Assembly (NCBI GenBank): GCA_963716395.1
Contig: OY970309.1
Span: forward strand, 2,281,365-2,345,364
Direction of reading: 5' to 3'
DNA from: an uncultured Fibrobacteria bacterium
Lineage (GTDB): Bacteria; Fibrobacterota; Fibrobacteria; UBA11236
Length of the DNA stretch: 64,000 nucleotides
The translations under genes and the position numbers were made by a program. Below are positions 7,721 through 60,870 of the stretch, in pieces (positions within the stretch are counted from its first letter, which is position 1; each line of letters begins with the position of its first letter). The notes under the pieces are model-generated. The model was not told the DNA's origin. It did no database searches and saw only the letters and a program-made list of their open reading frames with translations.

Positions 7721-7723
7721 GCG

Positions 7724-33073: not shown

Positions 33074-34155
33074 AATCAAAACCACTCCTCATCCTCGGAA
33101 TCGCCCTCTGTCTGGTACTCGGCATTTTTGCATTCGTGAAATGGCGCGGGAGCGGCGGACAAAAATCCACCGACGACGCATCGGACGATAAGGTGCCGAC
33201 CATGGTCGCCGTCCAAACCGACACGCTCCGGCGGATGACGTTGCACAATTATGTGAACGGATACGGAGTCGTGGAAGCCGCACCGGCGGCGGGAAGGAGA
33301 TCTGCGGCGGGCGGGATTTTAGCCGCGCCGGGCGCCGGCGTCGTGGCCCAAGTGGATGTGGTCGCCGGTCAGAAAGTGAAAAAAGGCGAGGTGCTGGTGA
33401 AATTGAATTCCGCCACGGCAACTTTTGACTATGCCAAAGCGGAAGTTGAGCGGCAACAACGTTTGTTTGCGCAACAAAATACGTCGCAAAAAAATTTGCA
33501 AGACGCCGAAGCGCAATTGGCGTCGCTGGAAGTCGTCGCGCCGGTTGCCGGCACGGTAACGCGATTGGATGTCCAACCCGGTCAGGCGGTGGATGTCAAC
33601 GCGCCGGTCGCCGAAGTGATTGATTTAAACCGGCTGGCTGTGGCGACTAAAATTCCGGAATCACAAGCGGGCGGATTGAAAGTCGGCGAAGAAGTTCAAA
33701 TTCCGGACGCCGGTGGAAAACCCGCGAACGGGCAGAATGCCCCCACTACCACCAAGCTGGCCTATGTCAGTCCCGCGGTGGACGCAACCGACGGAACGAT
33801 TTCCGCTTGGGCGGTTTTGCCGAAAGACAGCGGATTGCGTCCGGGAGAATTCGTGCCGGTAAAAATCGTCACCGAAACTCGCAGCGATTGTCTGGTTGCG
33901 CCGGACGAAAGCGTGGTGAACGACAATAACGGCAACAGCGTGATTGCGCGGGTGAAAGGGGTGGAGGCGACGCAAGTTCGGGTGCAAACCGGATTGCAAG
34001 AGGATCATTGGATCGAAATCACCGGAACGAATTTGCAGGCGGGCGATTCCGTGGTGACCGTCGGTGCCTACGGTTTGCCGGACCAGACCCAGATCAAAAT
34101 CGTCAATCCGCCGGCGGATAGGTCCTCGGCAACCCCTTCCGTTGACGCGCAATGA
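33070..34155 (+). CDS. Efflux RND transporter periplasmic adaptor subunit (membrane fusion protein, CzcB/HlyD family)
   Basis: N-terminal TM anchor and the lipoyl/beta-barrel MFP pattern (VVAGQKVKKGEVLVKL..., ...VAPVAGTVTRLDVQPG). It overlaps its neighbours by 4 nt on both sides. Confidence 0.85.
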   Translation: MKSKPLLILGIALCLVLGIFAFVKWRGSGGQKSTDDASDDKVPTMVAVQTDTLRRMTLHNYVNGYGVVEAAPAAGRRSAAGGILAAPGAGVVAQVDVVAGQKVKKGEVLVKLNSATATFDYAKAEVERQQRLFAQQNTSQKNLQDAEAQLASLEVVAPVAGTVTRLDVQPGQAVDVNAPVAEVIDLNRLAVATKIPESQAGGLKVGEEVQIPDAGGKPANGQNAPTTTKLAYVSPAVDATDGTISAWAVLPKDSGLRPGEFVPVKIVTETRSDCLVAPDESVVNDNNGNSVIARVKGVEATQVRVQTGLQEDHWIEITGTNLQAGDSVVTVGAYGLPDQTQIKIVNPPADRSSATPSVDAQ

Positions 34156-37100
34156 ATTCCAGCTCTTCTTCGCGCCTGGGCCGGTTCGCGACGCATCACG
34201 CGATTTCCATCGTGTTCGTCGCCATCGTGCTTTGTCTCGCCGGAATTTTTTCCGCGCTGAGAACGCCCTCGTCGGTTTTTCCGCAAACGAATTTCCCGCG
34301 TATTGTCGTCATCGTCAACAACGGTATCATGCCCGCCAAGGAAATGATGGCGACGGTGACGCGGCCAATCGAGGAAGCGATGAAAAGCATTCCCGGCGTC
34401 ACCTCGGTTCGTTCTTCCACGACCCGCGGTTCGGCCATCGTGAATGTGATTTTTACTTGGGGCACCGACATGCAGAAATCCGAGCTTTACGTGCTCGGCA
34501 AGCTTTCGGGAATTCGCGGTGATTTGCCGGCCACGGTCTCCACCGATGTTTCGCGCGTCGCCTTTTCCTTGAGCTATCCCATCATCGGCATCAGCCTGAC
34601 CAGCGATACGCGCAGTCAGATGGATTTGTGGGACAAGGCAAATTACACCATCAAGCCGCTCTTCCTGCAAATACCCGGCATTGCCAACGTGGATATTCTC
34701 GGCGGCCAGGAGCCGGAATATCGCGTCGTGGTGGATCCGCTGAAATTACAGGCGACGCATCTCGGCTTGCAGGACGTGAGCCAGGCGCTGACGCAAAACA
34801 ATCTGGTCGCCGCCGCCGGAATGGTCGTCGAAAACTATCATCTGTATTTGACGACGGTGGACGGCCGGGTCCATTCGCCCGAAGACATCGGCAACGTGGT
34901 CATTGCCGTCCGCGACCATCATCCGATTCAAATCAAAGACGTGGCGTCGGTCGCACGCGCACCGGCGCCGGTTTACACGGACATCACCGCACAAGGCCGA
35001 CAGGCGGTGCTTTTCAACATTGAAAGCCAGCCGGATGCCAGCGTGTTGCAAATTGCCACCGCCTTGAAAAAAGATTTGCAACAGTTGCATCAGGAATTGC
35101 CGCCGGATATGCACCTGACGTTTTTTTACGATCAATCGCAATTCGTGCAAGATTCGATCCGTAGCGTCTGGAGCGCGATCATTTTCGGCCTGATTCTCTC
35201 CATCGGCATCTTGTATTTCTTCCTGAAAAACTGGGGCAGCGTCTGGACGGCCATCGTCACGATTCCCATTTCGGTGCTCATCACCTTCGTCGTTATGAAA
35301 CTCGTCGGTATGAGTTTCAACATGATGACGCTGGGCGGCATCGCGGCGTCCATCGGGTTGATTATTGATAACGCGATTGTCGTCGTTGAGGCCATGTGTC
35401 ATCGCATCGTCGCCGGACGGCCACGGATGGAAGGCATTCACGCGGCGATGGGTGAAATTTCCAAGGCGCTTATCGGCTCGACGTTGACGCCGGTGGTGGT
35501 GTTTTTACCGCTGGCGTTTTTGAGCGGCATGGCCGGGGTTTTTTTCCGTGCCCTGGGCTTGACCATGGTCGTGTCCTTACTTGTGTCCTTGCTATTGGCC
35601 ATTACGCTGACGCCGTCGCTGGCGGCGTGGTTGATTCGCGGTCGAACCCAAGCGGTTGCCACCGCTGAAGAAGGTGGATTTTTGCTAAGGCCGATATTGC
35701 GGATTTATGAAGCGTCGGTGCGCTGGGCGTTGCGTCACGCGTGGCTGACGCTGCTGGCGTGTGGAATGATTTTCGTCGCGAGCCTCTTCATTTTCCGGCA
35801 ATTGGAAACCGGCTTTCTGCCGGATTTTGACGAAGGCGGGTTCGTCATGGATTACACTGCGCGGCCGGGCACGAGTCTCGCCGAAACCGCGCGCATTTTG
35901 GATGAAGCGGAAAAAAGCATTCGCGCCAATGCCGACGTGGAAGGCTATTCGCGTCGGCTGGGCGCACAGCTTGGGCCGTTTATATCCGAACCCTACGTGG
36001 GCGATTACCTTATCAAGCTCAAAGCGAATCGCAAACACACCACCGAAGAAGTTCTGGCCGCGATGCGGCATGATTTCAACCGTCGCTTCCCGATGGTGCA
36101 ATGGGATTTCCACGGTTACTTGGATGATTTAATCGGCGATTTGCAAATGGCGCCGACGCCGGTTGAGGTCAAATTGTTTTCGCCGGACATGGCCTGGCTG
36201 AAAACGAGCGCGCCGCGCATCGCGGATCAAATTCAGCAAATTCCCGGGGTGGTGGACGTCTTCAACGGCCTGACGGAAAGCGGGCCTTCCATTAATCTGC
36301 GCGTGCGCCCCGCGGACGCAGAACGCTTCGGCCTGACCACCCAATCCATCGCCGATGCCGTGAATACCGCGCTGCTCGGGGAAGTTTCGTCCTATGTCCT
36401 GAAAGGCGACCGGGTCATCAACATCCGCGTGGTGGCCGAGCCCAAAAGCGTGAACACGATTGCCAAACTGCGCAATTTGCCCATCCGCACGCCGGAGGGC
36501 GCCGTCGTGCGCGTGGAGCAAGTCGCCGACTTGAGTATTGCGCCGAACGAAGTGGAATTAAACCGCGAAGATTTGCGGCAGGACGACATCGTTTCCGCAC
36601 GGCTGGAAGGTGTCGACCTCGGCACGGCGATGCATGAGATCCAGTCCAAATTGAGGCGGGACAGTTGGTTGCCGCCCGGCTCGGTGGAATACGGCGGGCT
36701 TTATCATTTGCAACAACAATCGTTTCGCAACTTGTTGGCCGTACTGCTGGCGGCCATCTTGCTTGTGTTCACCATGCTGCTGATTGAATTCCGTTCGTTC
36801 TACGAACCGATGGCCATCGTCTTCGGCTCCGTGCTGGCCTTGTTCGGCGCGTTGGCGGCTCTGTGGATTACCGGAATTTCGCTCAACATCATTTCCTTTC
36901 TCGGCATGATTATCGGCGTCGGCATCGTCGCCAAAAATGGCATTCTCGTGCTGGATTATTTTCAACAACTGCGCGCGCAAGGCGTGGAACTTGTCGAGGC
37001 GCTGGTGCAGGCCGGCCATCGTCGCTTGCGTCCGGTGTTGATGACCTCGCTGGCGGCGGCGCTGGGCATGTTGCCGTTGGCCTGGGGCGCCGGCACCGGC

Positions 37101-37256
37101 GCGCAAATGCTCCAGCCGCTCGGCATCGCCGTGATCGGCGCGCTGTTCATTTCCGTGGTGCTGTCGCTCATCACCACGCCGGTCGTGTATTATTTGCTGA
37201 TGCGAATCCATCTGCGGTTTTTGAAAAAGCATCCCGCGGGTGAATTGGCAACTTGA
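34152..37256 (+). CDS. Efflux RND transporter permease (AcrB/CzcA/CusA family, 1034 aa)
   Basis: Twelve TM helices and two large periplasmic loops, typical of the family. The HME- versus HAE-type cannot be determined without an alignment. Confidence 0.9.
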   Translation: MNSSSSSRLGRFATHHAISIVFVAIVLCLAGIFSALRTPSSVFPQTNFPRIVVIVNNGIMPAKEMMATVTRPIEEAMKSIPGVTSVRSSTTRGSAIVNVIFTWGTDMQKSELYVLGKLSGIRGDLPATVSTDVSRVAFSLSYPIIGISLTSDTRSQMDLWDKANYTIKPLFLQIPGIANVDILGGQEPEYRVVVDPLKLQATHLGLQDVSQALTQNNLVAAAGMVVENYHLYLTTVDGRVHSPEDIGNVVIAVRDHHPIQIKDVASVARAPAPVYTDITAQGRQAVLFNIESQPDASVLQIATALKKDLQQLHQELPPDMHLTFFYDQSQFVQDSIRSVWSAIIFGLILSIGILYFFLKNWGSVWTAIVTIPISVLITFVVMKLVGMSFNMMTLGGIAASIGLIIDNAIVVVEAMCHRIVAGRPRMEGIHAAMGEISKALIGSTLTPVVVFLPLAFLSGMAGVFFRALGLTMVVSLLVSLLLAITLTPSLAAWLIRGRTQAVATAEEGGFLLRPILRIYEASVRWALRHAWLTLLACGMIFVASLFIFRQLETGFLPDFDEGGFVMDYTARPGTSLAETARILDEAEKSIRANADVEGYSRRLGAQLGPFISEPYVGDYLIKLKANRKHTTEEVLAAMRHDFNRRFPMVQWDFHGYLDDLIGDLQMAPTPVEVKLFSPDMAWLKTSAPRIADQIQQIPGVVDVFNGLTESGPSINLRVRPADAERFGLTTQSIADAVNTALLGEVSSYVLKGDRVINIRVVAEPKSVNTIAKLRNLPIRTPEGAVVRVEQVADLSIAPNEVELNREDLRQDDIVSARLEGVDLGTAMHEIQSKLRRDSWLPPGSVEYGGLYHLQQQSFRNLLAVLLAAILLVFTMLLIEFRSFYEPMAIVFGSVLALFGALAALWITGISLNIISFLGMIIGVGIVAKNGILVLDYFQQLRAQGVELVEALVQAGHRRLRPVLMTSLAAALGMLPLAWGAGTGAQMLQPLGIAVIGALFISVVLSLITTPVVYYLLMRIHLRFLKKHPAGELAT

Positions 37257-37285: not shown

Positions 37286-38728
37286 CTAACGGGCATGTTT
37301 TTCTCTTTTGCCACGATTATTTGCGGGGCGGCTCCAACCCCTGTAATTAAACCGAGGTTGAAATTTTCGTGTTGTATTTGAAGTCGGAGTTGTCCTTTGC
37401 CATCCATTATGGTTGGGCGGCCTGAAATTTTCGTGGGGCCGCGGCGGCCGCTGGGCTTGCGGGATGGGGCGCCTTCCTGGATTAATAGACCGCGGGGGAA
37501 TTTCCGAATTCGTTTCGCCCCTTCTTTGCCATCCGTGAAACTGCTGGTCTACGTGGTTCGGCCTTGCAAAATCCTGTTTTTCCTGAACGGCATTTCGTTG
37601 TACTCCCCTCTGAATATCGCGACGGTGGGGTGGGCTCCCGGATGAAATGGAAAGCGGACGCATTTTTTCCAGATTTACCCTTTCGCCGCCATGATGCGGT
37701 GATGTCCAAATACCCGTAGATCGCGAATCCCGATGGTTCCAACCTGAATGATATCTCTCTTCAAAATGGTTCTCCCACCCTTCATCCCGCCGGTGCTCCC
37801 AACGCTCATGCACGAACACCGGGTCATATCCCAATCCCCGCGATTCAAAATCGAAGGAAGCATAGAACCCCCGATGCAAGGAGGCGTCGGAGTAGTAATC
37901 TCCGAAATAATAATGGTCGTCATCTGACCGAAGAAAAAGATGGTTGGGAAGTACGGCTAAATCAATTTCATCGTGAGGACGATAACGATAATGTCGCCAT
38001 CCGTGATCATGATGTTCGAAATAAACCGGCGCAAAGAGAACGCCGCGCCGGTCAAAGGCATAATCCCAATATCCGCCGACGAATACGTAACCATTCGGAG
38101 TCCAGCTATAATAGCTGGGGCACCAATCCCAATCAGCCTCTCCTAACATCCAATAACCGGGGCTCCAATCGTACCTGCCTTGAGTCCAAACCCAGCATCC
38201 CGGCACCCAGACATAATCATCGGAAGGCGCGGGAAGGTCGGGCCCGTCCTCCAGCGTGGCCGGAGGATCCGGTAAATAAACGGTGGCCGTGCTGTCGGCG
38301 GCATCCGCCCAATAACCGGAAACCCATTGATATCCTCCGACGACTTTGACCCATTCACCGGATACCCACTGTCGTCCCGGTGGTGTCGCCCGCCAGATGC
38401 CGCTCACCCAAATAAAGTCGTGGCGATCCACATCCCAAGCCCAGTAACCCGGAATCCAGACCACATGGTCACCTTCCGGTTTTACGGAGGGAGGAATTTC
38501 GCGGATGTTTTCCGGAGGTTTTTTCGGAACGACGCTTCCCGGCGTGGGTTGGTAGGATTCGGCTTCTGCAAAGGCTTCGTGAACGGGACCGCTCGTTAAG
38601 GTTTGCTCCTGGGAGACCGGTGTATCGGTCGAATCGGCAAAGGAAAAGATTATTCCCTGGCCCAGGCAAAACCAGAATACGCTGATTGCCAGCGAGAGTT
38701 GCCGAAATGGGATGGGCGACGCATACAT
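37286..38728 (-). CDS. Secreted hypothetical protein with tandem aromatic (Y/W)xWxxGxW repeats and a long His/Arg/Asp/Gly/Pro-rich basic C-terminal tail
   Basis: Likely start at ATG 38728 (MYASPIPFRQLSLAISVFWFCLGQGIIFSFA signal). Repeats WIPGYWAWD, IWVSGIWR, QWVSGEWVK, YQWVSGYWAD, YVWVPGCWVW and WSPGYWM (WXXGXW-like). The tail has RP-rich repeats such as PQAQRPPRPHENFRPPNHNGWQR. The ORF-track start at 39166 overlaps the neighbouring gene and looks spurious. Confidence 0.55.
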   Translation of the reverse strand: MYASPIPFRQLSLAISVFWFCLGQGIIFSFADSTDTPVSQEQTLTSGPVHEAFAEAESYQPTPGSVVPKKPPENIREIPPSVKPEGDHVVWIPGYWAWDVDRHDFIWVSGIWRATPPGRQWVSGEWVKVVGGYQWVSGYWADAADSTATVYLPDPPATLEDGPDLPAPSDDYVWVPGCWVWTQGRYDWSPGYWMLGEADWDWCPSYYSWTPNGYVFVGGYWDYAFDRRGVLFAPVYFEHHDHGWRHYRYRPHDEIDLAVLPNHLFLRSDDDHYYFGDYYSDASLHRGFYASFDFESRGLGYDPVFVHERWEHRRDEGWENHFEERYHSGWNHRDSRSTGIWTSPHHGGERVNLEKMRPLSISSGSPPHRRDIQRGVQRNAVQEKQDFARPNHVDQQFHGWQRRGETNSEIPPRSINPGRRPIPQAQRPPRPHENFRPPNHNGWQRTTPTSNTTRKFQPRFNYRGWSRPANNRGKREKHAR

Positions 38729-39056
38729 GGGTTTACTTCTTTTTAACCCTACCCTGAATATACTCGGAACCGAGAGCCCCATGAGCTTTCGTTTCAAAAT
38801 GATGGGGTTTCGAGGCGGTGTATCACCGGCTGGAAAGAAAACGTTACACGCCGAATCATCGTCGGAGACGAAGGTAAAAGCGCCGCTCAACGAAAAGCAC
38901 ATAGACCACCGCCGGAATTTTTTCCCTGCGCTACCAGTTGGGCATGGGAAGCGGCGGTTGGGGGCGAGAAGCAGGAAGCAGGCGAGTTTCGAGTTCATGG
39001 TTATCTCCCGATGAATTGTTGTTCCTGTCGTTCTGGCGACGGAGTGTTTTGGAAGT

Positions 39057-39692
39057 TCAGTGTTGCACCCCGCGTTGCGGGGCGGAACGTCCATGCGGGG
39101 CATGGAAAGGATTTTGCCTGCCTGTATTTCTCCCGTAAGATCGGCCGTCGTGATTCTCGGAATCATAACCGTCGCGGTTTCTATGATCGCCGCGATATCC
39201 GCCGTTGCCTTTTATTTCACGGTCATCGCCTCGGCGGCGGTGGCCGCCCTGCCGGGAGTTATCGTGATATTCATCGCGATATCTGCGCGAATACTCACCA
39301 TGACGGTCAAAGCCGCCGCGCCGCATTTCGATGCGTCGTTCCGGACGCCGTTCAATTACCCAGACGCGGCGTCCATGCACGATGCGCAGCATACGGTAGG
39401 GATGATCCACCACCAGCACACGCGGGTTGACGGCATCGCAACTTGGGGATGCGTATTCTATCGGCGCCGTAGTTTCCTCGGTCACAATTTGTGGTTGATC
39501 GCCATCGTCCCATGTTTTGGCGATGGTGACTTGAGCATGGGGAAGACCGAAGGATATGGCGATCCCGCCGTCTGCGCGCGCGGGTGTTGCGGACAACAAC
39601 GCGGCGGAGGCAATGCCGGCCAACAAGCCGGCGACGGTTCGGCCTTGGATTAAACCGGCCCAATGGGACTGGGTTTGGTAGTGAGTTTTCAT
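39057..39692 (-). CDS. Secreted hypothetical protein with an Arg/Asp/His/Gly/Tyr-rich low-complexity C-terminal half
   Basis: ATG 39692 preceded by AGGAGG (spacing 7). Signal peptide MKTHYQTQSHWAGLIQGRTVAGLLAGIASAALLSATPARA. C-terminus RRYRDEYHDNSRQGGHRRRGDDREIKGNGGYRGDHRNRDGYDSENHDGRSYGR. Confidence 0.5.
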   Translation of the reverse strand: MKTHYQTQSHWAGLIQGRTVAGLLAGIASAALLSATPARADGGIAISFGLPHAQVTIAKTWDDGDQPQIVTEETTAPIEYASPSCDAVNPRVLVVDHPYRMLRIVHGRRVWVIERRPERRIEMRRGGFDRHGEYSRRYRDEYHDNSRQGGHRRRGDDREIKGNGGYRGDHRNRDGYDSENHDGRSYGRNTGRQNPFHAPHGRSAPQRGVQH

Positions 39693-40159
39693 AAGACGCC
39701 TCCTGGTCTTTGGTTTGGAATAGTTCATACCCCAGTCAAAACAAGATTCGGGCCAATTCGAGAAACACCGATTTTGGCCAAAACGCAGGTTCTGATGCGA
39801 AAAACCGCCCAACATCTTTACAGGTGTCCACCCCTTGGGGAGGTGTGGCGGTTCAGTCTTTTAAGGCTTGCCGTGAAGCCGAATCAATGGAAAAGTGAAC
39901 GCTGAGGGACGAAAACAGGATCTGGTCGAATTCGAAACCTTACAGCCCCCGAAAGGGGATCCATGAGTTGGCGTGAATGTTCGGTCGCAAACTGGATGTG
40001 TGTTCTCAGAACATTCCCAATTCGGCTCTCCCTTTCTCTTTCAAAAAGGGAAAAGGTGGTTACGAATCGTTCTGGGCGGCACTTTTTTGAAGTGCCCGGA
40101 AGTGGCTTATTTTAAGTGCCCACTCACATCACGACTAATTTTAAGATGGCCTCTGGGCA

Positions 40160-41194
40160 TTACTTGGTATACAACACAAGCTGCGGGCCGTATAGTTGGG
40201 GTGATACAAAATCCTTGGAAAACATGTAAAGAGTTGCCGCAGTCTTGGATTCTATGGCGATGGAGAGAGTATCGGAAACGGCGACAGAATCGGAGAAGAA
40301 CCGAGTTACATCCAGCGTCATCAAACCGATGCTGTCAAGCGGGAGGTAGTGATCTGCGGCTGTGGGAACAAACCCTACCGAGGAGTCAACAATCTGAAGC
40401 GAGTTTCGCAGAGCAGTGGAATTACTCCATCTAATTCCGCTTGCCGAAGCTGGATTCATACTGCCTGCAGGCGGTACATATTGAGGAAAATCTTCATAGG
40501 CAACGTCATAATTGTTGTGCTTCGCTCCGTCGAAATAATACCAGTTCCCGGCTCCCTCGGCCCATGATCCAGAAACCGAACAGGTATACAAGAGGTAATC
40601 GGTCGCCGCTGGAGAAGCCATTCCGTGAAGTACCAATTCCGCTTTTTGGATTTTTTTTCCGGCCAATGTGCTTTTGATGCCGGTGAAGCCCACCAACACA
40701 ATGCCGTCCGGATACAACCGCAAGTCAGATCCCAATCCGACATTCCAATCCTCAGAATCAATACCCACGTCTTGCGCCGCATAAATCGTTTTGGGAGAGG
40801 TTGGGGCCACCTTACCCACATCGCATTTGCCATCCAATTGTATTCCGGAAATGGAAACGGTTTGCGTATCGCTGTCTTTTTTAAAAGAACACTCCAGATT
40901 ATAGCGCCCCATTTTCAAAGTTGAGAATTGAAAATGACCCACATCATCTGTTCTTGACGAATCGAAAACGCCAACATTTTCAATCGCCGTTTTGGCAAGA
41001 CCAGTATCCATCGGGGCGGAAGAGACCAACACCAAGGCCTCGGAAACGGGATTTCCCTGCAAATCCAAAATGGTGCCGGAAAGCACCTCGTTCGAATCGC
41101 CAGCTCCCCTTGAGGAGAAGAGACAGGCGTTGAAAACAGATAAAATACAGATGCAAGTTAAATAACCGATCCCATTTTTCATGTTTCCGCCCAT
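40160..41194 (-). CDS. Lipoprotein with an N-terminal carboxypeptidase-regulatory-like (CarbopepD_reg) beta-sandwich domain, then an uncharacterized domain
   Basis: Lipobox LSVFNAC. GTILDLQGNPVSEALVLVSS...GHFQFSTLKMGRYNLECSF resembles the Cna-B/CarbopepD_reg fold. The gene lies in a reduced-GC region (about 48%). Confidence 0.5.
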   Translation of the reverse strand: MGGNMKNGIGYLTCICILSVFNACLFSSRGAGDSNEVLSGTILDLQGNPVSEALVLVSSAPMDTGLAKTAIENVGVFDSSRTDDVGHFQFSTLKMGRYNLECSFKKDSDTQTVSISGIQLDGKCDVGKVAPTSPKTIYAAQDVGIDSEDWNVGLGSDLRLYPDGIVLVGFTGIKSTLAGKKIQKAELVLHGMASPAATDYLLYTCSVSGSWAEGAGNWYYFDGAKHNNYDVAYEDFPQYVPPAGSMNPASASGIRWSNSTALRNSLQIVDSSVGFVPTAADHYLPLDSIGLMTLDVTRFFSDSVAVSDTLSIAIESKTAATLYMFSKDFVSPQLYGPQLVLYTK

Positions 41195-41248
41195 TGTTTG
41201 TTGTTCAAACTGTAGCAGATATTTTAACATAGAAATTGGACACCCAGT

Positions 41249-41557
41249 TCAGATTTTTAATAAGCGGGCTAAATCATTTTCTCCTTGCACCACGGCCAAG
41301 GCGTAAACTGTGATTTGTCCGGGCATTTGCGCGTTCACAGCGGCGCCTTTGGAAATCAAAAGTCTGGCGACTTCGGTATGATGTCCCCAAATCGCATCCA
41401 TCAGGGCGCTATTCCCGCTCTCGTCTTGGGCGTTTATGTTCGGCCCCTCTTCTAACAGGTACTGCACGATATCTAAATCGCCATCCAACGCCGCCTACTG
41501 CAAGGGCGTCCAGTTGATCGTAACTTGCGTATTTACGTTAGCGCCATGTTGAACCAT
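41249..41557 (-). pseudogene. Ankyrin-repeat protein gene interrupted by an in-frame TAG (at 41495..41497)
   Basis: MVQHGANVNTQVTINWTPLQ-[TAG]-AALDGDLDIVQYLLEEGPNINAQDESGNSALMDAIWGHHTEVARLLISKGAAVNAQ... The stop sits where the ANK consensus (TPLH-x-AA) has an aromatic/His residue. The ORF-track ORF 41249..41488 starts at TTG immediately after the stop. Confidence 0.45.
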
Positions 41558-41824
41558 GGCCTTGATTTCAGGTAAATTTGCGGTACGGACATTATAAAAA
41601 ATGCTATCGATTTATGCTTGAAAGATTATCGGAATTGAAAGCAAGATTAAAAATAAAATTTTCATAATCCCCTCCCATGTTCCTTTTGAAGCCTGGTAAT
41701 AAATTACATGTTTGAAAGGTGAGTATTGTACAAGATTAAATTATATTAATTGACAAGAAGGCGCGTGAAATGTGTGATTTTGAATAATCAGATTAACTTT
41801 CTCCATTGTTAAAGAAAAATTCAG

Positions 41825-42046
41825 ATGAATTTTAAAGTCTTTGAGATATTTCTTGAAGCCGGGATCATCCTGAGCCCCATCGCCGCGTTATTGGCTTACA
41901 TCATTATCTACATCGAATATGCTCGGCATTATCAAACAAAAGACAAAACCAGAAAAATCGCTTTTCAATTCGCAAAAACGGCTTTTATTTTTTTCTTTGT
42001 TGCAACTCTGATTTCCGGTATTTTGATTTCTCTTGTATATTCCTGA
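41825..42046 (+). CDS. Small hydrophobic membrane protein (73 aa, two predicted TM helices) in the AT-rich island
   Basis: ORF within a roughly 35%-GC segment. Hydrophobic composition, no homolog recognised. Confidence 0.3.
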   Translation: MNFKVFEIFLEAGIILSPIAALLAYIIIYIEYARHYQTKDKTRKIAFQFAKTAFIFFFVATLISGILISLVYS

Positions 42047-42325
42047 ATCATGGCGCGCTCATTAAAAATTGCTTTCTAGGTTATTTTTGTGAACCCAGGG
42101 TGAATGCGATTTGAGGAAAATACCGCGGGCATCGCTGTCGGGCGGCATCGGAAAATAAGTCGCCCAACGCTTCCATGTAAAACCAAGATACTTGTCGGAG
42201 ATGCGATGACGGGCGCCTCGCAGGCTACGTTCCTGCAAATGGACGAGGACTGCCGATAACATTTTCTATTTTTAATAAATACCATTAGTTCATCAAAATC
42301 CGAAATATTTTATTGGATTACTATA

Positions 42326-42679
42326 ATGTTTTCACAAACCCTTGGAACTGCACTCGGGGACTGGAAGGCAGATTCGATAGGGTTGGGGTATGTCGGCGGA
42401 GCCGCCATATTTTCAGGATTGCTTTTACTCGTTGCGGCCGGCTATTATTGGTCGAAGGTTTCCAGGACCATGCTTTTTTGCACGGCATTTATTCTTGCCA
42501 GACCGCTTGTCTCTGTGGTTGGTGATTATCTTGACAAGCCCCATTCCAGGGGCGGTTTGGCGTTGAGCCGGTATTCTGCGTCAGCCGTAATTCTTGTCTT
42601 TATCGTGGTTTGTATCTTTATTTTTCCGCAAGGGCCGCGGAAAAAGTCATTAAACAAGATTGAGCGCGTATACAGATAA
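42326..42679 (+). CDS. Membrane protein fragment (117 aa). It resembles the C-terminal half of a larger membrane-anchored protein and may be a gene remnant.
   Basis: Two TM helices (GGAAIFSGLLLLVAAGYYW and AVILVFIVVCIFIF) with no N-terminal domain. Island context. Confidence 0.3.
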   Translation: MFSQTLGTALGDWKADSIGLGYVGGAAIFSGLLLLVAAGYYWSKVSRTMLFCTAFILARPLVSVVGDYLDKPHSRGGLALSRYSASAVILVFIVVCIFIFPQGPRKKSLNKIERVYR

Positions 42680-42816
42680 AAAAATCAATTGAACACGTAG
42701 TAATTATTGCAAATTTGAGAAACCATTTCTATCTCAAAACAAATACACTTGGAAAAATTACTTATCCGTGGCTAAAATTGCCTGAACCTCAATAGTTGGG
42801 AATTGGATTTAATAAA

Positions 42817-43236
42817 ATGAATACTTGGTGGTTTTACGCCCTGTTGTCCGCATTCTTTGCCGCCTTGACGGCAATCCTCGCCAAAATTGGAATTAAAGGT
42901 GTCGATTCCGATCTGGCCACAGGAATCCGAACTGTGGTGATTCTATTCATTACGTGGGGAATAGTTTTCTTTAAAAAATCGGGCGCAAGCATATTTTCCT
43001 TATCAAGACACAGTTTGATTTTCATCTGCGCTTCCGGAGTTGCAACGGGTATTTCCTGGTTGTTTTATTTTCGGGCGCTTCAGTTGGGGAAGGTCTCCCT
43101 GGTCGCTCCCATTGACAAAGCAAGTCTGGCGATTACGATTTTACTTTCGGTTTTATTTTTGGGTGAAACGTTGACGCTTAAAACATCAATCGGGGCGGTT
43201 CTTATTTTGGCCGGAACCTTAATTCTGGTTCTATGA
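42817..43236 (+). CDS. Small EamA/DMT-superfamily transporter (4-TM, 139 aa)
   Basis: ATG 42817 (MNTWWFYALLSAFFAALTAILAKIG...). Four hydrophobic helices and an EamA-like motif pattern (ILFITWGIVFF...LFLGETLT). Confidence 0.65.
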   Translation: MNTWWFYALLSAFFAALTAILAKIGIKGVDSDLATGIRTVVILFITWGIVFFKKSGASIFSLSRHSLIFICASGVATGISWLFYFRALQLGKVSLVAPIDKASLAITILLSVLFLGETLTLKTSIGAVLILAGTLILVL

Positions 43237-43406
43237 TGTCGGAAATAAAGTATTAATTTAAAAATGGGAAACCTTATTCAAAGAAAGGCCCCCGTTTTCC
43301 TTGAAACTCTGACCTATTCCGCACACTTGGAGGTACAGCTTTAACGGAAGCAATGAAGTTTGCAATTCGTGAGAAAACCATTACTTTTTTGGGATAAAGG
43401 AAGTGC

Positions 43407-44210
43407 ATGAAGTATTTATTCATTTTCTGTAGCGGACTGCTGCTGTTGTGCGGGGGCTGTGCTACGGCGCAAGGGCAAACCAAAGTTTCACCGTCGGCGC
43501 GAAGCGCAGAGACTTTGGCCTCAGCGACCAGTGAAATTTCACCGCGCGCCGAAAGCGTATTGCGGTCGGCTTGCGATTTTCTTGCGCAAACGCCCGCTTT
43601 CAGTTTTAGCGGTGAGATCTGGCGCGAGCATATTAATGATTCCGGGCATAAAGTTCAATTCAGCCGCATGGTAGAAATGGATGTTAAACGACCGGACGGA
43701 TTGCGGCTGGAGATCAGCTCGCCCTTCTCCACGCGCGGCTTTTGGTACGACGGTAAAACACTGACGATTCTGGACCGCACGCATAATTGGTATAGCAGCG
43801 CCGCCATGCCGTCCACGCTGGATGACATGGTGGACACGGCGCGTGATGAGTATGGAATTGATTTGCCGTTGATTGACCTCGCGGTGAGCGACCCATACAA
43901 GAATGCCATAGCGAAAGTGGAAACGGCGAAGTATTATGGAATTTCCCCGGTGTTGGGCGTTCTGTGCCATCATCTGGCGTTTACGCAGGACAATGTGGAC
44001 TGGCAGATTTGGATTCAGGAAGGTCCGCAGCCGTTGATCCGAAAATTTGTCATTACGCACAAAAACGATCCCGGCCAGCCGGAATTCACCGCCTTCATCC
44101 TACATTATGACATGAACGACCGGATTACCAATACTGATTTTGAATTCAACTCGCCCGTGGGCGCATCCAAGATAGCGATGCGCAAGGTTGAATCCGGCAA
44201 TACAAAATAA
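43407..44210 (+). CDS. Periplasmic/outer-membrane lipoprotein with a LolA-like fold (tentatively DUF2092-like)
   Basis: Lipobox LLLCGGC. Size and predicted beta-rich character. Its stop overlaps the start of the next gene (TAATG). Confidence 0.55.
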   Translation: MKYLFIFCSGLLLLCGGCATAQGQTKVSPSARSAETLASATSEISPRAESVLRSACDFLAQTPAFSFSGEIWREHINDSGHKVQFSRMVEMDVKRPDGLRLEISSPFSTRGFWYDGKTLTILDRTHNWYSSAAMPSTLDDMVDTARDEYGIDLPLIDLAVSDPYKNAIAKVETAKYYGISPVLGVLCHHLAFTQDNVDWQIWIQEGPQPLIRKFVITHKNDPGQPEFTAFILHYDMNDRITNTDFEFNSPVGASKIAMRKVESGNTK

Positions 44211-45013
44211 TGATTATGAAATTTATCGCCTTTAACCGCTCTAATTTGTTAATCACGCTTTTAGCGGTTGGAATTTATTGCCCGAACCTATATGCTGCGG
44301 ACTGGGGCAGTCTGCGTGGAAACAATCGCAGCAGCGGTGCTCGCATGCAATCCGCGCCGCGTCCACAATCACAGGGGAGCCGCCAGCCGGAAATCCGCCA
44401 GCCGGAGTCGGCTCGGCATTCCGAGCCACAGGCTCGTCCGGAACAGGCGCGTCAGGATATGCAACCACCGCGTCGGCAACCGCGTCCCATTGCATACGTG
44501 CATCCCGCGCCGGCGCAGGTGAACCAGGCGCGAGCTGAGGAGTCAGACCGGGAGCGGATGGATGTCGCCCAGGAACAGCGGCAATCCTACTTCTGGTCCG
44601 ATTACCACAAAGGAATGCGGATGAACCGGTTGCCAGACGGCTACCGTCGTTTTCACGTCCATGATCACGACTATTTTTATTTTGAAGGCGTCTTTTACGA
44701 CGATGAATCGTCGGGCTACGAAGTAATCGCTCCACCGGTAGACGTGGAAATTTCAGATTTGCCCCCGGGCGCGGAAACGGTGGTTGTAGATAACACTATT
44801 TATTGTTATGCAGCCGGAGCCTTTTACCTGCAACAACCGGACGGAGGCTATCTTGTCGTGGCACCGCCAATGGACGCGACCGTATCATTGCTTCCCCCGG
44901 ACGCGGCTGAGGTAATCACCAACGGAACAGTTTATTATCTGGCCGATGGAACCTATTACATGCCGGTCATCGAAAACGGTGCGACAGTTTACCTTACGGT
45001 CCCGCAACCCTAG
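44210..45013 (+). CDS. Secreted hypothetical protein with a Gln/Arg/Pro-rich N-terminal region and a Tyr-rich C-terminal repeated domain
   Basis: Signal peptide MIMKFIAFNRSNLLITLLAVGIYCPNLYA. QPE(I/S)RQP-type repeats. Paired motifs (IYCYAAGAFYLQQPDGGYLVVAPP, VYYLADGTYYMPVIENGATVYLTVP). Translationally coupled to 43407..44210. Confidence 0.55.
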   Translation: MIMKFIAFNRSNLLITLLAVGIYCPNLYAADWGSLRGNNRSSGARMQSAPRPQSQGSRQPEIRQPESARHSEPQARPEQARQDMQPPRRQPRPIAYVHPAPAQVNQARAEESDRERMDVAQEQRQSYFWSDYHKGMRMNRLPDGYRRFHVHDHDYFYFEGVFYDDESSGYEVIAPPVDVEISDLPPGAETVVVDNTIYCYAAGAFYLQQPDGGYLVVAPPMDATVSLLPPDAAEVITNGTVYYLADGTYYMPVIENGATVYLTVPQP

Positions 45014-45190
45014 TCATTGTCGCGCGTGGATCACTGAGCACTATAGGCAAAAGGTTACACATAGGTTACGTATCCACTTTGTGTCCCTTTTTACGGACGC
45101 GATGGCAGGATTCGGTTTGGTTTGAATACCGGCAGCCGACCAAAAAAATTTTTAGATCGCTTTTATCACGCTGAATTCGGGATTTGGAAA

Positions 45191-45263
45191 TGAGCCAGGA
45201 GGGATTTGAACCCACGACCCACGCCTTAAAAGGGCGCTGCTCTACCAACTGAGCTACTGGCTC
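45191..45263 (-). tRNA. tRNA-Lys (anticodon UUU), 73 nt, no encoded CCA
   Basis: Manual fold. Perfect 7-bp acceptor stem GAGCCAG/CTGGCTC. D-stem GCTC/GAGC with G18G19. Anticodon stem GCGCC/GGCGT and loop CUUUUAA (U33, A37). T-loop TTCAAAT. One U-U mismatch in the T-stem. Confidence 0.85.
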
Positions 45264-46313
45264 CGGATTCCCACGGAGAACGGGCAAAGATAGAACCGGT
45301 CCCGGGGGCCTTGCAAGCACACCCTTGGCCATACCCAAGGTCGCCATGTACCTTGTTGCCGTGCTGGCGCGACCCGGGCCGAATTGGCGACGTCATATTC
45401 ACGTTACGGTGCTGGTCGCGGCGGCGGCTTGCGGGTCCGCGTCCGCCCAATGGCTGGGCGAGCCGGGCACCGAAGCCTTTCCCGGATTGAGCATCGACGC
45501 TTCGGCGCGCTCGGCGGGCTTGGCCGGGGCGGCCTGCGCCTTGCCCGAGGGCACCGAATCGCTGGGGGACAATCCCGCGGGACTTGTCGAAGATCGCGGC
45601 CATGCGGTATACCGCGGTTCGGTGCGGGCCCAACCCGACGGCGCCGACGCCGGCGCCGTGGCGTACGCCCAACCGTGGGGCGACCGGGCGCAAATCGCGG
45701 TGGGCGCGGGGTATCTCGATTACGGCAGCATCCAAAGTTTGGACGAGCTCGGCAACCCCACCGGAGCCACGCTGCGGCCCATGAGTTTTTACCCGGCTGC
45801 GACCTATGCCCAGCGAGACGGCGAGCATTGGCGTTGGGGCGCCACCTTCAAGATGGCTACGGAATATCTCGGCGACTTCGAGGGCTCGCAGGCCGCTTTG
45901 GGAATGGGCGCGGATGTCGGCGTACAGTATCAGCCGGCAGCCCGCAATCTCGGGTTCGGCGCTTCCCTGGTGAACGTGGGGAAAAAAATCCGGGGGCATT
46001 TTGCCGGCGATGCGGATCGGGGGGGATTTCCCACGGTGGCGAACGCCGGCTTGTTTTATCACCCCATCGGGCAGGACAAGGTCACGCTTACGGCCCAGGC
46101 CGAATTGCCTTTTTATGACGCCCCGGCGGCCGCCTTGGGGTGCGAATACCGATACTCTCCGCAATGGACGTTGCGCGCCGGCACCCGGTGGGATGTGAAC
46201 GACGTGCGCAATATCCTGGTCGAAACGGGATCGGTGGGCGGCGCCCCCCGTTACGGCAGCGCCATGAAAGCCGCGGCGGGAACCTCGCTGCAGGTGGGAG
46301 CCATCGGCGTCGA

Positions 46314-48883
<2,570 letters not shown>

Positions 48884-48887
<4 letters not shown>

Positions 48888-50290
48888 GGAAGCTCCCTTT
48901 CCAAAGGTTTGGCCGCGGCGGCCTTTTCCCAATCCGCCTCCGGCGCTTTGGCGAAATGAAACTTCGCCAATTTGCTTTTGAGGGTGGGCAGGGGAATGTT
49001 CAAAAGTTGGGCCGCCTTGGTTCGGCTGCCGTCGCAGCGCGCCAACGCCTCTTTGAGCACGCGCTCTTCCGTGCGATCGAGAAATTCCGGCAGCGAACTT
49101 TGTCCCCAGTCGAAGGCGGGAACCCGGCCTGCGGCGTCGACGAGATTGAGGGGCAAGGCGGAGCGATCGATTTTTCCGTCGCGGTTGAGCAGCACCAGGC
49201 GTTCGATGACGTGCTCCAGTTCGCGCACGTTGCCCTCCCAGTTATGCCGTAGGAAAATTCCCAGGATCTCGTCGGAGAAATCGAGTTTCCGATCCGGGGA
49301 ATATTTCCGCAGGAAATGATCCACCAAAAGAGGAATATCCTCGGACCGTTCCCGCAAGGGGGGGATGCGGATTTGTAACACGTTCAGGCGGTAATACAAA
49401 TCCTGACGGAAGGTTCCGTTTTCCACCAGCCGGGCCAAATCTTTCTTGGTGGCCACCAAAATGCGCACGTCGGCGTGCAACGTCTCTTCGCCGCCGACGC
49501 GTTCGAATTTTCCCGTCTGGGTGAAGTTCAGCAGCTTGACCTGGGTCTCCATGGGAATGTCGTCGATTTCGTCGAGGAACAAGGTGCCTTTGTGCGCCAT
49601 TTCAAAGCGGCCTTTTTTCTGGCGCACCGATCCCGTGAAGGCGCCTTTCTCGTGACCGAACAGTTCCGATTCCAACAGTTCGCGCGAAAGCGCGGCGCAA
49701 CTGACCATGACGAAGGGATGGTTGCTGCGGCGGCTTTGGTAATGGATGGCTTCGGCCAGCACGTTCTTCCCCGTGCCGGTTTCGCCGTAGATGAGCACGG
49801 TGGAGTCGGCCGCCGCCACGATCCCGGCCAGGTCGAACACCGCCCCCATGGCCGGCGACCGCGCCAGCATGTTGCCGAAACTGCGGTCGGAATCGTGGCA
49901 GCCGCGGCGCTCCCGGGTTTCCTTGCGGATGCGAATGGTTTCTTTTACGTGCCGGATGATGCCCATCAGTTGTTCGATTTCAAAGGGCTTGCGCAGATAA
50001 TCGACCGCGCCGTTCTTCAGGATTTCAATCGCCGATTGAATGGTGGCATGCGCCGTCATCAGCACAAATTGCGTGGCCGGGCAATTCGCCTTGACGAATT
50101 CCAGCACTTTCGGACCGTCGATGCCGTCCATGACCATGTCGCAAATGACGAGGTCGAAGTCGCCGGCGCGCAGACAGGCCACCGCTTCTTCGCCGGTGGC
50201 GACGGCGGTCACGCAGAAACCCGCATCCCGGAGTTCATCCTCCAAAGCCAGGCGCAGGCTTTTTTCATCTTCGGCGATCAAGATGTTCAT
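48884..50290 (-). CDS. Sigma-54-dependent response regulator (NtrC family)
   Basis: Receiver domain MNILIAEDEKSLR...DLVICDMVMDG. AAA+ sigma-54 activator motifs GETGTGKNVLAEAIH and GAFTGS (GAFTGA-like). C-terminal HTH. ATGA overlap with the upstream kinase gene and a 4-nt overlap with hppA. Confidence 0.9.
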
Positions 50291-51837: not shown

Positions 51838-53382
51838 CTACTTCTTCCACTCGGGAACGATCTCGTAGACGATGGCGGCGATGAAGCAGAGCATGATGCC
51901 CCCCACGCAGAGGATCGGGCTGAAGGGAAGAATCGGATCGAGATACGCTTTGGTCCCGAAGCGGGCCGAGAGCAAGAAACCGGCCACCGCCAGGGAAAGG
52001 CCCAAGATCAAAGTGATTCCGAAGCAGGTAAGGCGGCGCAGATGGCTAAGGTGGCTTTCGCCCAGTTTGACCTGCAACGCCGGCAACTCATGGGCATGCA
52101 TGTTCAGCGGGACGATCGGGAAGATTTTCATGAAGCCCATGTACACCATGATCGCCAGGGCCGTAAGGCCCGCGATGATGGAAACTTCCACCCAGGAGGG
52201 ATGATAGAAGCCGTGGCGGTAAGGCAGCAAAGTGCCGAAGGTTTGCGAAGGCACGATGATGATGAAACGCTTCAGAATGCAGGAGACGTTCACCAACAGG
52301 CCGGCGAAAACATGCAGCCCGATGTTCGTGATCCCTTTCAGGTATTGAAAGAAAATGATCAGAGCGGAGATGAGCAAGCCGCCGACCGTAATCCAGAACA
52401 ACGGCGCATAGACACCATTGGTCACCTGTTGCGCGACCCGGGTTTCGATCAACGGGGCGGCATAATGTTCGGTGAGTTCTTCGGCGACCATGAAATAGAT
52501 GTAAACGCCGCAGAGAATCATCATCAACAGACCCAGCCATTTGAAGGCTTTGGGAACGATGACCTCCTGCAAATTCAGGAACTTTCGGACCAAGGCCATG
52601 ATCACCATGATGAAGCCGGTTCCGGAAATTCCGGCCATGACCACGAACCCGGGTGCCTGCAGGGCCGTGAACCAGCCGGGGCGGGCCGATTGGAGTCCAA
52701 AAATGAAGCCCAAAGTGGAATGCGCGGTGATGAGCAAGGGCAGGATGAAAAGCGAAAGCCAGAAGCTGGAGTTCGCGTGCCGGTTGAAATCCTCGGGCCG
52801 GGGCTGAAAGCCCATGGCCCAGATCTTATAGAACATGCGCAGGGGCGGGAACGTGGCGCGGGTGGCGAGGTAGGCAGCGTCTTCGCGGGCCGAGAGATAG
52901 AAGAAGACCATGCTGGAGAAGAGGTATCCGGCCGCCACCATGGCAAAGTCGCCGAAGAAGGGAGAAAGCGGACGGGAGTAAAGCGGAAAGTTGATGATGC
53001 CGTGAATCGGCCGTCCGAGATCGGCCAGGATGGCGACCGCACCCATGGTCAAGATGATGATGGTCATCAGCTCGGCCATGCGCGCAATGGGTTTCAGGTA
53101 GGAGATTCCGAACAGGCGGATGGTGGCCGAGATGGTGATGCCCGCAAAACTGACACCTACGAAGAAAACGTTGAAGATGACGTACAGGCCCCAGGTGGAT
53201 CCACCCACCCCGATAGTGCGCATGTTGGTGACGAGTAAACCGTACAAGACCTGGCGGGAATAGGCATAAACGCCGACGGCAAAGATCAGAAACAGTACGG
53301 CCATGATGGCCATCCAGGTCGGACTGAATTTCATCAGCCCCAGGGGAACCGGTTGGGACGAATCTTCATTGAACATTTCCAT
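51838..53382 (-). CDS. NrfD/PsrC-family polytopic membrane subunit (ActC/QrcD-like quinone-interacting subunit, about 514 aa)
   Basis: Ten or more TM helices and the NrfD-family pattern. Start MEMFNEDSS at 53382 overlaps the upstream FeS gene stop (TGATG). The ORF-track N-terminal extension is R/P-rich junk. Confidence 0.8.
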   Translation of the reverse strand: MEMFNEDSSQPVPLGLMKFSPTWMAIMAVLFLIFAVGVYAYSRQVLYGLLVTNMRTIGVGGSTWGLYVIFNVFFVGVSFAGITISATIRLFGISYLKPIARMAELMTIIILTMGAVAILADLGRPIHGIINFPLYSRPLSPFFGDFAMVAAGYLFSSMVFFYLSAREDAAYLATRATFPPLRMFYKIWAMGFQPRPEDFNRHANSSFWLSLFILPLLITAHSTLGFIFGLQSARPGWFTALQAPGFVVMAGISGTGFIMVIMALVRKFLNLQEVIVPKAFKWLGLLMMILCGVYIYFMVAEELTEHYAAPLIETRVAQQVTNGVYAPLFWITVGGLLISALIIFFQYLKGITNIGLHVFAGLLVNVSCILKRFIIIVPSQTFGTLLPYRHGFYHPSWVEVSIIAGLTALAIMVYMGFMKIFPIVPLNMHAHELPALQVKLGESHLSHLRRLTCFGITLILGLSLAVAGFLLSARFGTKAYLDPILPFSPILCVGGIMLCFIAAIVYEIVPEWKK

Positions 53383-54263
53383 CACACTTCCTTTTTTTCC
53401 AGCCCCAAAGATTTTTCCTTGCGCAGGAAATAAACCTTGGGCCGGGTTCCGAGGTCTTCGAGCAATCGTTGCGCGCGGGGGCTGGCGGCCAGGCGCGATA
53501 CCAGGCTGTCGGGATCGTTCAGGTCGCCGAAGATGATGGCTTCGGCCGGGCAGGATTGCGCGCAAGCCGGAAGCAATTGCACGTCTTCGTCGGTGAGCGC
53601 GCGGTTTTCGGCCCGGCAATCTTCTTTGAGTTTGCGGATGCGATGCACGCAGAAGGTGCATTTCTCCACCACGCCCCGCGGGCGTGTGGCCACGTCGGGA
53701 TTCAGCGCTTCTTTATAAGTATCGGGCCAGGCAGGCTCGGTCCAATTGAAATAGCGGCGGGAGTAGGGGCAGGCCACCTGGCAATAGCGGCAGCCGATGC
53801 AGCGATCCCAAATCTGGGCGACGATGCCTTCTTCGTCCTGCATGGTGGCGCCGACCGGGCAGACTTTTACGCAGGGGGGATTCTCGCAATGGTTACAAGG
53901 CATGGGCGTCGCAATGGAATCACTTTCTTCGCTGAAGTTCAGCATGGTCATCCAATTGATTTCGGCCCCGGCCTTGCGGGGGTTGTCGCCGTTGAAAGGC
54001 ACGTTGTTCTCGACATGGCAGGCCACCACGCAGGCGCCGCAGCCCGAGCACAAATCGAGATCGATGGCCATGCCCCATTTTGGGCGTTTCCCGGTTTTGG
54101 GGTTGAGGTACACGCCCTTGGATTCGGTTTTCATTTCCTTGGCGACGGCCGCCTGGATCAATCCCGCAAAGGGCAGGGCGGCGATGAGCTTGAGAAAGGT
54201 GTTGCGGGGCATACCTCCCAAGGTTTCTTCCGGCGCGGCGATTTCGGGTTTCGGGTTTTTCAT
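53382..54263 (-). CDS. 4Fe-4S ferredoxin-type iron-sulfur subunit (PsrB/ActB2/QrcC-like)
   Basis: Four Cys clusters: CSGCGACVVACHVENN, CNHCENPPCVKVCP, CIGCRYCQVACP and CTFCVHR. Start ATG 54263 (MKNPKPEIAAPEE) lies 2 nt after the stop of the molybdopterin-subunit gene. Confidence 0.85.
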   Translation of the reverse strand: MKNPKPEIAAPEETLGGMPRNTFLKLIAALPFAGLIQAAVAKEMKTESKGVYLNPKTGKRPKWGMAIDLDLCSGCGACVVACHVENNVPFNGDNPRKAGAEINWMTMLNFSEESDSIATPMPCNHCENPPCVKVCPVGATMQDEEGIVAQIWDRCIGCRYCQVACPYSRRYFNWTEPAWPDTYKEALNPDVATRPRGVVEKCTFCVHRIRKLKEDCRAENRALTDEDVQLLPACAQSCPAEAIIFGDLNDPDSLVSRLAASPRAQRLLEDLGTRPKVYFLRKEKSLGLEKKEV

Positions 54264-54265
54264 AA

Positions 54266-57263: not shown

Positions 57264-57292
57264 GTCGTCACCTATCGGTTTGCCGCGGGGGG

Positions 57293-60073: not shown

Positions 60074-60078
60074 AAGCC

Positions 60079-60834: not shown

Positions 60835-60870
60835 ATGTCCGGAGAATCTTTTTCTAGAGGAGCGTGGAAA

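Follow-up and report, generated by a model that had tools for sequence, protein, structure and literature searches.

Genomic islands, in the classical concept of Hacker and Kaper, are associated with tRNA genes, and those smaller than 10 kb are distinguished as islets. Here we describe a segment of about 5.5 kb, at 39.66–45.19 kb of a 64-kb stretch of contig OY970309.1 (the whole of which we call the window), that abuts the 3′ end of a tRNA-Lys(UUU) gene and resembles such islands in its atypical guanine-plus-cytosine (GC) content and codon usage, its position at a tRNA 3′ end, its accessory, envelope-type cargo, its singleton genes and a content that differs from that of fairly distant relatives at the same site. 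It is unlike classical islands in its small size, in having neither an integrase nor flanking direct repeats, and in being mosaic and partly pseudogenised. The reading we favour, with fair though far from complete confidence, is that the segment was acquired horizontally and is now a small, immobile mosaic that occupies a variable site 3′ of tRNA-Lys(UUU). For most of its length a foreign origin is well supported by low GC at third codon positions (GC3), by near-orphan and singleton genes, by close homologs that other phyla carry on plasmids and transposons and by the sharp edges of a two-gene module. The segment is thus an ordinary degenerate genomic islet, and nothing in it departs from known kinds.

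Two described systems lie close to individual parts of the segment. The mmf ("multiple metal response") cassette of Tn6048 (PMC4914505) serves here as the comparison cassette in the forms carried by Cupriavidus metallidurans CH34, the IncP-1 plasmids pHB44/pBS64 and pJAB4138. The LolA/LolB/RseB superfamily of periplasmic lipid- or lipoprotein-binding proteins is the other, and DUF2092, the family of one gene of the segment, has been linked to LolA by a published remote-homology assignment (PMC4520260).

Composition and extent of the segment

Measured in 1-kb steps, GC content stays at 54–67% throughout the 64-kb window but falls to 0.42–0.49 at 40–44 kb. In 2-kb steps it is 0.41–0.46 across 40.0–43.5 kb (z = −4.8 to −6.0 versus the rest of the window), against 0.588 ± 0.030 with a minimum of 0.532 in steps without contact with the region, a background drawn from the 64-kb window only and not from the whole genome; in 300-bp steps the lowest values, 0.33–0.37, lie at 41450–42049. 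Maximum-likelihood segmentation of 30–55 kb with two boundaries placed breaks at 39,660 and 44,280, with a GC of 0.455 between them, against 0.572 on the left side and 0.598 on the right. The same segmentation gave weaker secondary breaks at 43,430 (GC 0.442 vs 0.513), at 45,210, which corresponds to the tRNA 3′ end (0.549 vs 0.602), and at 37,180, the end of an RND pump gene. Together these breaks outline a low-GC core (Table 1) and a milder shoulder of GC 0.51–0.55 that runs from the core up to the 3′ end of tRNA-Lys(UUU) at 45191.

Codon usage follows the same pattern. GC3 is 0.40–0.52 in the core genes, 0.61 in the DUF2092 gene and 0.57 in the DUF6515 gene that follows it, against 0.715 ± 0.07 in 33 open reading frames (ORFs) taken as native. 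Base composition and codon usage of the segment are therefore unlike the local background by GC z-score, GC3 and segmentation, as in genomic islands. AT-rich promoters as the only cause of the dip, the outcome by which the preliminary description proposed that an island could be refuted, are ruled out because the core genes themselves are low in GC3. The same description had placed a GC drop from about 65% to about 35% at 39.9–45.0 kb. The dip is real, but it sets off from a background of about 59%, and the core ends near 43.4 kb; only the gene directly to the right of the tRNA reaches 64–71% GC, and the left flank lies at about 55%.

The segment contains three composition classes, at about 47%, 36–45% and 52–55% GC. 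By arithmetic on gene coordinates, intact genes cover about 62% of it and two pseudogenes about 15%, and the remaining 23% or so is non-coding with a GC of 0.29–0.49. Even with a left shoulder counted from 37.3 kb it measures at most 7.9 kb, below the 10-kb size of islands.

The tRNA-Lys(UUU) site in related contigs

The tRNA-Lys(UUU) gene is the only tRNA gene in the 64-kb window. Its 3′ end, a location typical of genomic islands, lies 177 bp from the stop codon of the DUF6515 gene, as the preliminary description had estimated (about 180 bp). On its other side lies a PorV/PorQ-family gene with 87 homologs, the best at 64% identity; the comparison with the second-closest homolog, on contig L083 (60% identity), gave a synonymous divergence (dS) of 1.3. 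The pair of tRNA-Lys(UUU) and PorV/PorQ is kept in 7/7 related contigs, in which PorV/PorQ is 47–64% identical. The 3′ side of the tRNA holds other genes in these relatives: msrAB in L082, L087, L088 and L089, followed by mfd and surA-like genes in the three of these contigs that are long enough, and a gene for an fn3-type protein in L090 and L091, preceded by two GSDH genes in the longer of the two, L090. None of the relatives' contigs that show this side has a GC dip.

The break with the relatives is precise. The tRNA body is essentially identical across the lineages compared, and homology stops exactly where the tRNA ends: after the discriminator base come CCATTC in L082, L087 and L090 and TTT in the window, L081 and L083. 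CCA is encoded in L082, L087, L089 and L090, and not in the window genome or L083. L081, a Logan short-read contig from the same strain with an identical PorV/PorQ gene, ends 3–4 nt past the tRNA 3′ end, and so does L083, which belongs to an independent assembly (GCA_041483475.1, contig JBGPFT010000186.1); the two contig ends are suggestive of unresolved variation or repeats at that point. Translated comparison (tblastx) of the relatives with the window found only the tRNA and the PorV/PorQ gene in common, and synteny is lost on both sides of the pair, where the window has a pyrophosphatase gene and the relatives have Usp, a response regulator or a histidine kinase.

A scan of 185,579 reference genomes with PorV/PorQ confirmed no relative. 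The same genomes scanned with the H+-pyrophosphatase gave 80 loci that were kept, all at 68% identity or less and taxonomically scattered, and useless for synteny. This H+-translocating pyrophosphatase (46314–48932, − strand) has its best matches, at 63–68%, in Methanosarcina, Deltaproteobacteria, Syntrophomonadaceae and Prolixibacteraceae. Such scattered matches carry no taxonomic information, and the gene may itself be horizontally mobile. Elsewhere in the window, a protein encoded at 28065–29534 carries a Por_Secre_tail type IX secretion sorting domain. Judged from this domain and PorV/PorQ, the host appears to have a type IX secretion system, and the two markers together presumably place it in the Fibrobacteres–Chlorobi–Bacteroidetes group.

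A two-gene module with sharp edges

The right-hand part of the segment is a module of two genes, DUF2092 and DUF6515, whose stop and start codons overlap such that base 44210 is common to both ORFs. The DUF2092 protein matches Pfam PF09865 with E = 1.7e-65 (220.8 bits against a cut-off of 21.2) and DUF6515 its family with E = 2.2e-29, and the module as a whole has a GC of 52–55%. DUF2092 has 368 homologs, of which the best 120 are 56–81% identical; the four with organism names are labelled Limisphaerales, Verrucomicrobiota, Verrucomicrobiae and Acidoferrales, that is, three Verrucomicrobiota and one Acidobacteriota. The two genes are adjacent in contigs L092/L093 (82% and 76% amino-acid identity) and in L094/L095 (78% and 63%), and the pair also occurs on a plasmid of Gloeothece, each time in an unrelated context. 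The nucleotide alignment of the window with L092 has 78.4% identity over 1,634 bp and covers exactly 43387–45016, the two genes with 20 bp upstream, and no similarity to L092 was found outside these limits; L093 matches likewise. In this comparison dS is 0.79 in both genes, and the ratio of nonsynonymous to synonymous divergence (dN/dS) is 0.14 for DUF2092 and 0.21 for DUF6515. The equal dS and low dN/dS indicate that the two genes have descended together and that selection on them is purifying. From these comparisons DUF2092–DUF6515 is a widespread, selected and apparently transferable operon. The preliminary description had named the same block, with similar composition, at a non-tRNA site in related genomes as a sign of ancestral DNA; this sub-block, which sits at non-tRNA sites elsewhere, fits that description in part.

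DUF2092 is LolA-like on the strength of the Pfam match, the published remote-homology assignment and a fold search, the last of which is qualified by a low-confidence model. The top 31 Foldseek matches of the model are all LolA or LolB, at a mean predicted local distance difference test score (pLDDT) of 52.5 and template modelling (TM) scores of 0.35–0.5. Sequence and, with that qualification, fold matches thus place DUF2092 with the LolA/LolB/RseB superfamily; unlike LolA, its gene is translationally coupled to a Tyr-rich partner, DUF6515. Neither protein has a related solved structure by sequence, and no functional literature on either was found. The pair is the one component of the segment of wider interest, as a LolA-like putative periplasmic carrier with an uncharacterised Tyr-rich partner. 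Elsewhere in the window, the stretch 4563–8470 (− strand) holds a second LolA-superfamily gene (LolA_like, PF17131), unrelated to the DUF2092 gene of the islet, beside genes for two MacB/FtsX-type permeases and an ABC ATPase.

A DUF347–EamA remnant resembling transposon cargo

Two membrane-protein genes to the left of the module point to transposon and plasmid relatives. The DUF347 fragment is 69% identical to residues 134–245 of a 252-residue DUF347 protein of the Janthinobacterium plasmid pJAB4138, so that its first 133 or so codons are missing, and it matches positions 91–204 of 216 of PHROG 19706. On pJAB4138 this gene lies in a cassette of PepSY, undecaprenyl-diphosphatase, DUF347, hypothetical, DUF347, response regulator, kinase and EamA genes, bounded by Tn3-family and TniQ/TniB/DDE transposition genes; gene order and gene sizes identify it as the Tn6048 mmf cassette, and the protein with which the fragment shares 69% identity as the product of mmfC2. 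The EamA protein shares 69% identity with the product of a gene on a Hymenobacter plasmid and 46% with the Tn6048-associated EamA, and its best plasmid matches are all from Cytophagales.

As in the Tn6048 mmf cassette, an MmfC2-like DUF347 gene here stands close upstream of a small single-domain EamA gene. The full set of PepSY, UppP, two DUF347 genes, mmfD, mmfRS, eamA and tni is nevertheless not present: half of one DUF347 gene is all that is found of the two, and the mmfRS two-component system, PepSY, UppP, mmfD and the tni transposition genes are missing. Unlike the betaproteobacterial Tn6048 versions, the DNA here has a GC of 44%, and the EamA is closer to Cytophagales plasmid genes. On this gene content, the DUF347 and EamA remnant resembles the Tn6048 mmf cassette without being a member of it. 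The closest plasmid homolog of EamA, on the Hymenobacter plasmid NZ_CP141185.1 (L086, 2112–6350), sits among PAP2 phosphatase genes, and in Tn6048 an undecaprenyl-diphosphatase gene accompanies eamA; going by this gene neighbourhood, small EamA transporters may be functionally linked to undecaprenyl-phosphate metabolism. Rfam searches, permissive on the region and at the gathering threshold on the whole window, returned the tRNA only, and no riboswitch upstream of EamA.

Near-orphan and decayed genes of the core

The left part of the core encodes a putative lipoprotein with a CarboxypepD_reg domain, which has a single homolog in 5.8 billion proteins, 38% identical over the C-terminal 57% of the query; its AlphaFold2 model (pLDDT 41.5) is unusable. 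Beside it lies an ankyrin-repeat gene whose signal peptide, first repeat and remaining repeats share one frame, split by a TAA and a TAG stop codon. Reading through both stops improves the Ank_4 match from 6e-12 to 5e-20, and one repeat match spans the second stop. The gene thus lacks the uninterrupted frame of a functional ankyrin-repeat protein. An alternative genetic code behind these stops is ruled out, since adjacent frames end at standard stop codons, such as the TAA at 44208–44210 that terminates DUF2092. Between the ankyrin gene and the DUF347 fragment, a hydrophobic ORF of 73 residues has no family match in Pfam, PHROG or NCBIfam.

These results bear out the gene calls of the preliminary description (CarboxypepD_reg, ankyrin, DUF347, EamA, DUF2092 and DUF6515), and the two in-frame stops agree with its disrupted ankyrin gene. 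Its term "lineage-orphan" fits the lipoprotein, a near-orphan, but not DUF2092 with its 368 homologs or the DUF347 fragment and EamA, both of which have a plasmid counterpart at 69% identity. Four proteins were looked up in clusters at 90% identity, the lipoprotein, EamA, DUF2092 and DUF6515, and each is the sole member of its cluster.

Table 1. Features of the segment and its flanks (positions in the 64-kb window)
Feature	Position	Strand	Basis and remarks
WXXGXW-repeat secreted protein, left shoulder	37286..38728	−	Pfam WXXGXW match; GC3 0.54 vs native 0.715
Near-orphan secreted protein ("gene B"), Arg/Asp/His-rich tail	39057..39692	−	Immediately left of the composition break; GC3 0.58
Low-GC core, GC 0.44	39660..43430		Likelihood segmentation; GC z −5 to −6; gene GC3 0.40–0.52; spacer GC 0.29–0.49
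CarboxypepD_reg-domain putative lipoprotein, intact, near-orphan	40160..41230	−	PF13620, E = 9.5e-7, below gathering cut-off
Secreted ankyrin-repeat pseudogene	41249..41665	−	In-frame stops TAA 41612–41614 and TAG 41495–41497
73-aa hydrophobic ORF, GC 0.36, GC3 0.405	41825..42046	+	Two transmembrane segments by eye; status uncertain
DUF347 membrane-protein gene, 5′-truncated, MmfC2-like	42296..42679	+	C-terminal half only
Single-domain EamA transporter, 139 aa, intact	42817..43236	+	Pfam EamA, E = 2e-19
Two-gene module	43387..45016	+	DUF2092 43407–44210 (LolA-like); DUF6515 44210–45013 (Tyr-rich)
Spacer from module to tRNA 3′ end, GC 0.45	45014..45190		ORFs without Pfam match; no similarity to relatives' tRNA flank
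tRNA-Lys(UUU), without encoded CCA	45191..45263	−	ARAGORN and Rfam; 3′ end towards the islet
PorV/PorQ-family outer-membrane protein, native right flank, GC 0.66	45346..46380	+	NCBIfam NF033709, 99.9 bits vs cut-off 90

Origin of the segment

That three or more composition classes lie side by side and differ in their nearest relatives argues for several events of acquisition, and the patch was probably assembled stepwise from no fewer than three sources. One source would have supplied a 47%-GC piece with the near-orphan lipoprotein and a secreted ankyrin gene that was later killed by two nonsense mutations. Another would have supplied a 36–45%-GC piece with the tiny membrane ORF, the C-terminal half of DUF347 and the small EamA gene, echoing the cargo of Tn6048-type transposons and Cytophagales plasmids. 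The DUF2092–DUF6515 operon, at 52–55% GC, would be the third, circulating as a unit among other phyla. The tRNA 3′ end may have served as the recombination site for entry, perhaps with a tyrosine integrase that has since been lost, and later deletions and AT-biased decay would then have taken out the mobility genes and repeats. Such tRNA-directed entry is suggested by a single observation, namely that homology to the relatives and base composition both break precisely where the tRNA ends. The intact genes that survive all encode envelope proteins (the lipoprotein, the transporter, the LolA-like carrier and its partner), which probably act independently and not as one system.

Several results weigh against acquisition at the tRNA as we favour it. 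No integrase, transposase or recombinase, even fragmentary, was found among the segment's genes or by Pfam in 19 stop-to-stop ORFs from its spacers, and no recombinase appeared among the long ORFs scanned elsewhere in the 64 kb. Searches of the segment's genes with PHROG, NCBIfam and PADLOC likewise returned no recombinase. The tRNA 3′ end has no second copy in the 64 kb at up to three mismatches, a repeat search was also empty, and gapped local alignment of the tRNA 3′ end and flank against 15 kb scored at best 13.5, against a maximum of 14.0 in shuffled sequence. Two hallmarks of genomic islands, an integrase and attachment-site repeats (attL/attR), are thus absent from these family scans and repeat searches, as the preliminary description had noted by eye. 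Searches of a phage collection, of viral contigs (with the tRNA end and DUF2092) and with defence-system models gave no meaningful match. None of contigs L092–L095 carries a tRNA, so the tRNA is not intrinsic to the module. The sliding-window check proposed in the preliminary description returned strongly deviant GC, but once GC is normalised the tetranucleotides deviate only mildly (z = −0.7 to −2.0). The comparison of the site covers distant relatives: the nearest PorV/PorQ homolog is 64% identical, and the reference-genome scan came no closer than 68% on the pyrophosphatase. Host and closest module donors are placed taxonomically by a few source names and the type IX markers only.

Much of this evidence would also fit a general plasticity zone or synteny breakpoint, at which DNA accreted by illegitimate or homologous recombination, as transposon cargo or by transformation, and to which the tRNA is adjacent merely as the edge of a conserved tRNA–PorV/PorQ unit. 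Three GC classes with different nearest relatives, the lack of an integrase or attachment repeat, the presence of DUF2092–DUF6515 on four other contigs without a tRNA, a DUF347–EamA association that resembles transposon cargo, the loss of synteny with relatives on both sides of the tRNA–PorV/PorQ pair, and left-flank genes that are compositionally atypical and near-orphan as well are all consistent with such accretion. Yet the homology break, where CCA and the next bases are replaced, and the composition break both fall at the tRNA end, and so precise a coincidence is less expected from random accretion than from tRNA-directed site-specific recombination; we regard a plasticity zone as rather unlikely, though less so than the other alternatives. 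The preliminary description of an old, degraded island at a tRNA gene accordingly stands as to foreign origin for most of the segment and its position at the tRNA 3′ end. A single ancient island that integrated there and later decayed is conceivable but not demonstrated, given the missing integrase and attachment repeat, the mosaic structure, the size of an islet and the fact that no close relative with an empty site was found.

Two further explanations do without acquisition at this site. Dispensable secreted and membrane genes of native origin could be decaying under relaxed selection, with GC lowered by AT-biased mutation, which would account for two pseudogenes, a non-coding share of about 23%, GC-normalised tetranucleotides near those of the host and left neighbours that are lowish in GC3 too. 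Native decay is nevertheless improbable: intact genes are low in GC3 as well (EamA 0.49, lipoprotein 0.50), DUF2092–DUF6515 is under purifying selection (dN/dS 0.14–0.21) and still has a GC3 of 0.57–0.61, proteins of the segment are 69–81% identical to genes of other phyla whereas native neighbours reach no more than 64–68%, and relatives have no GC dip at the site. A chimeric long read or misjoin that put foreign metagenomic DNA beside the tRNA is very improbable. The short-read Logan contig L081 does stop 3 nt past the tRNA 3′ end, and the exact islet proteins are on record on no other contig; these exact-protein look-ups are, however, uninformative, as the index missed the source genome too. 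The CCA-less tRNA end is common to the independent assembly L083, the segment is internally mosaic and not one foreign piece, and both of its ends lie in intergenic DNA with intact flanking genes.

On the reading of the segment as an acquired patch, envelope genes are exchanged between this poorly sampled lineage with type IX secretion and gene pools of the Verrucomicrobiota, Bacteroidota and Proteobacteria type. In annotation, the segment should be flagged as acquired and partly pseudogenised, and excluded from reconstructions of the core metabolism or envelope of the host. A bolder proposal, which we consider unlikely, is that the tRNA-Lys–PorV/PorQ junction is a lineage-wide capture site that repeatedly takes in cross-phylum envelope cassettes without a recognisable integrase; the cassettes so captured would include a mobile, translationally coupled module of LolA-like and DUF6515 genes.

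Left flank and other features of the window

The atypical zone may begin at 37.3 kb already, where an RND efflux operon (31715–37256) is followed by the gene for the WXXGXW-repeat protein. This protein has more than 536 metagenome homologs at 40–58% identity, and none of the 536 relatives from the metagenome scan shared any neighbour with the window; synteny therefore cannot fix the left boundary. Gene B, next to it, has one real homolog, at 44% identity, among 1.84 billion representative proteins, and no match in Pfam, NCBIfam or PHROG. The longest ORFs of the two genes, 37286–39166 (−) and 39057–39815 (−), overlap by 110 bp, and signal-peptide-like sequences suggest true starts at 38728 and 39692, which would leave a spacer of about 330 bp. 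Both proteins have long, basic, His/Arg/Asp-rich low-complexity tails.

Further from the segment, the − strand at 9749–19246 encodes a giant protein of 3,165 residues with six Laminin_G_3 domains, four DUF2341 domains and a beta-helix, followed at 19243–22680 (−) by a paralog-like neighbour of 1,145 residues. The strongest tetranucleotide outlier of the window lies inside the giant gene, at 13–15 kb (z = −3.1), where GC is normal. Genes clustered at 51838–62241 code for a molybdopterin oxidoreductase together with a 4Fe-4S protein, a membrane subunit resembling NrfD and several c-type multihaem cytochromes with c7, NrfB and MtrC-like domains, a gene content that suggests an anaerobic respiratory or extracellular electron-transfer module.

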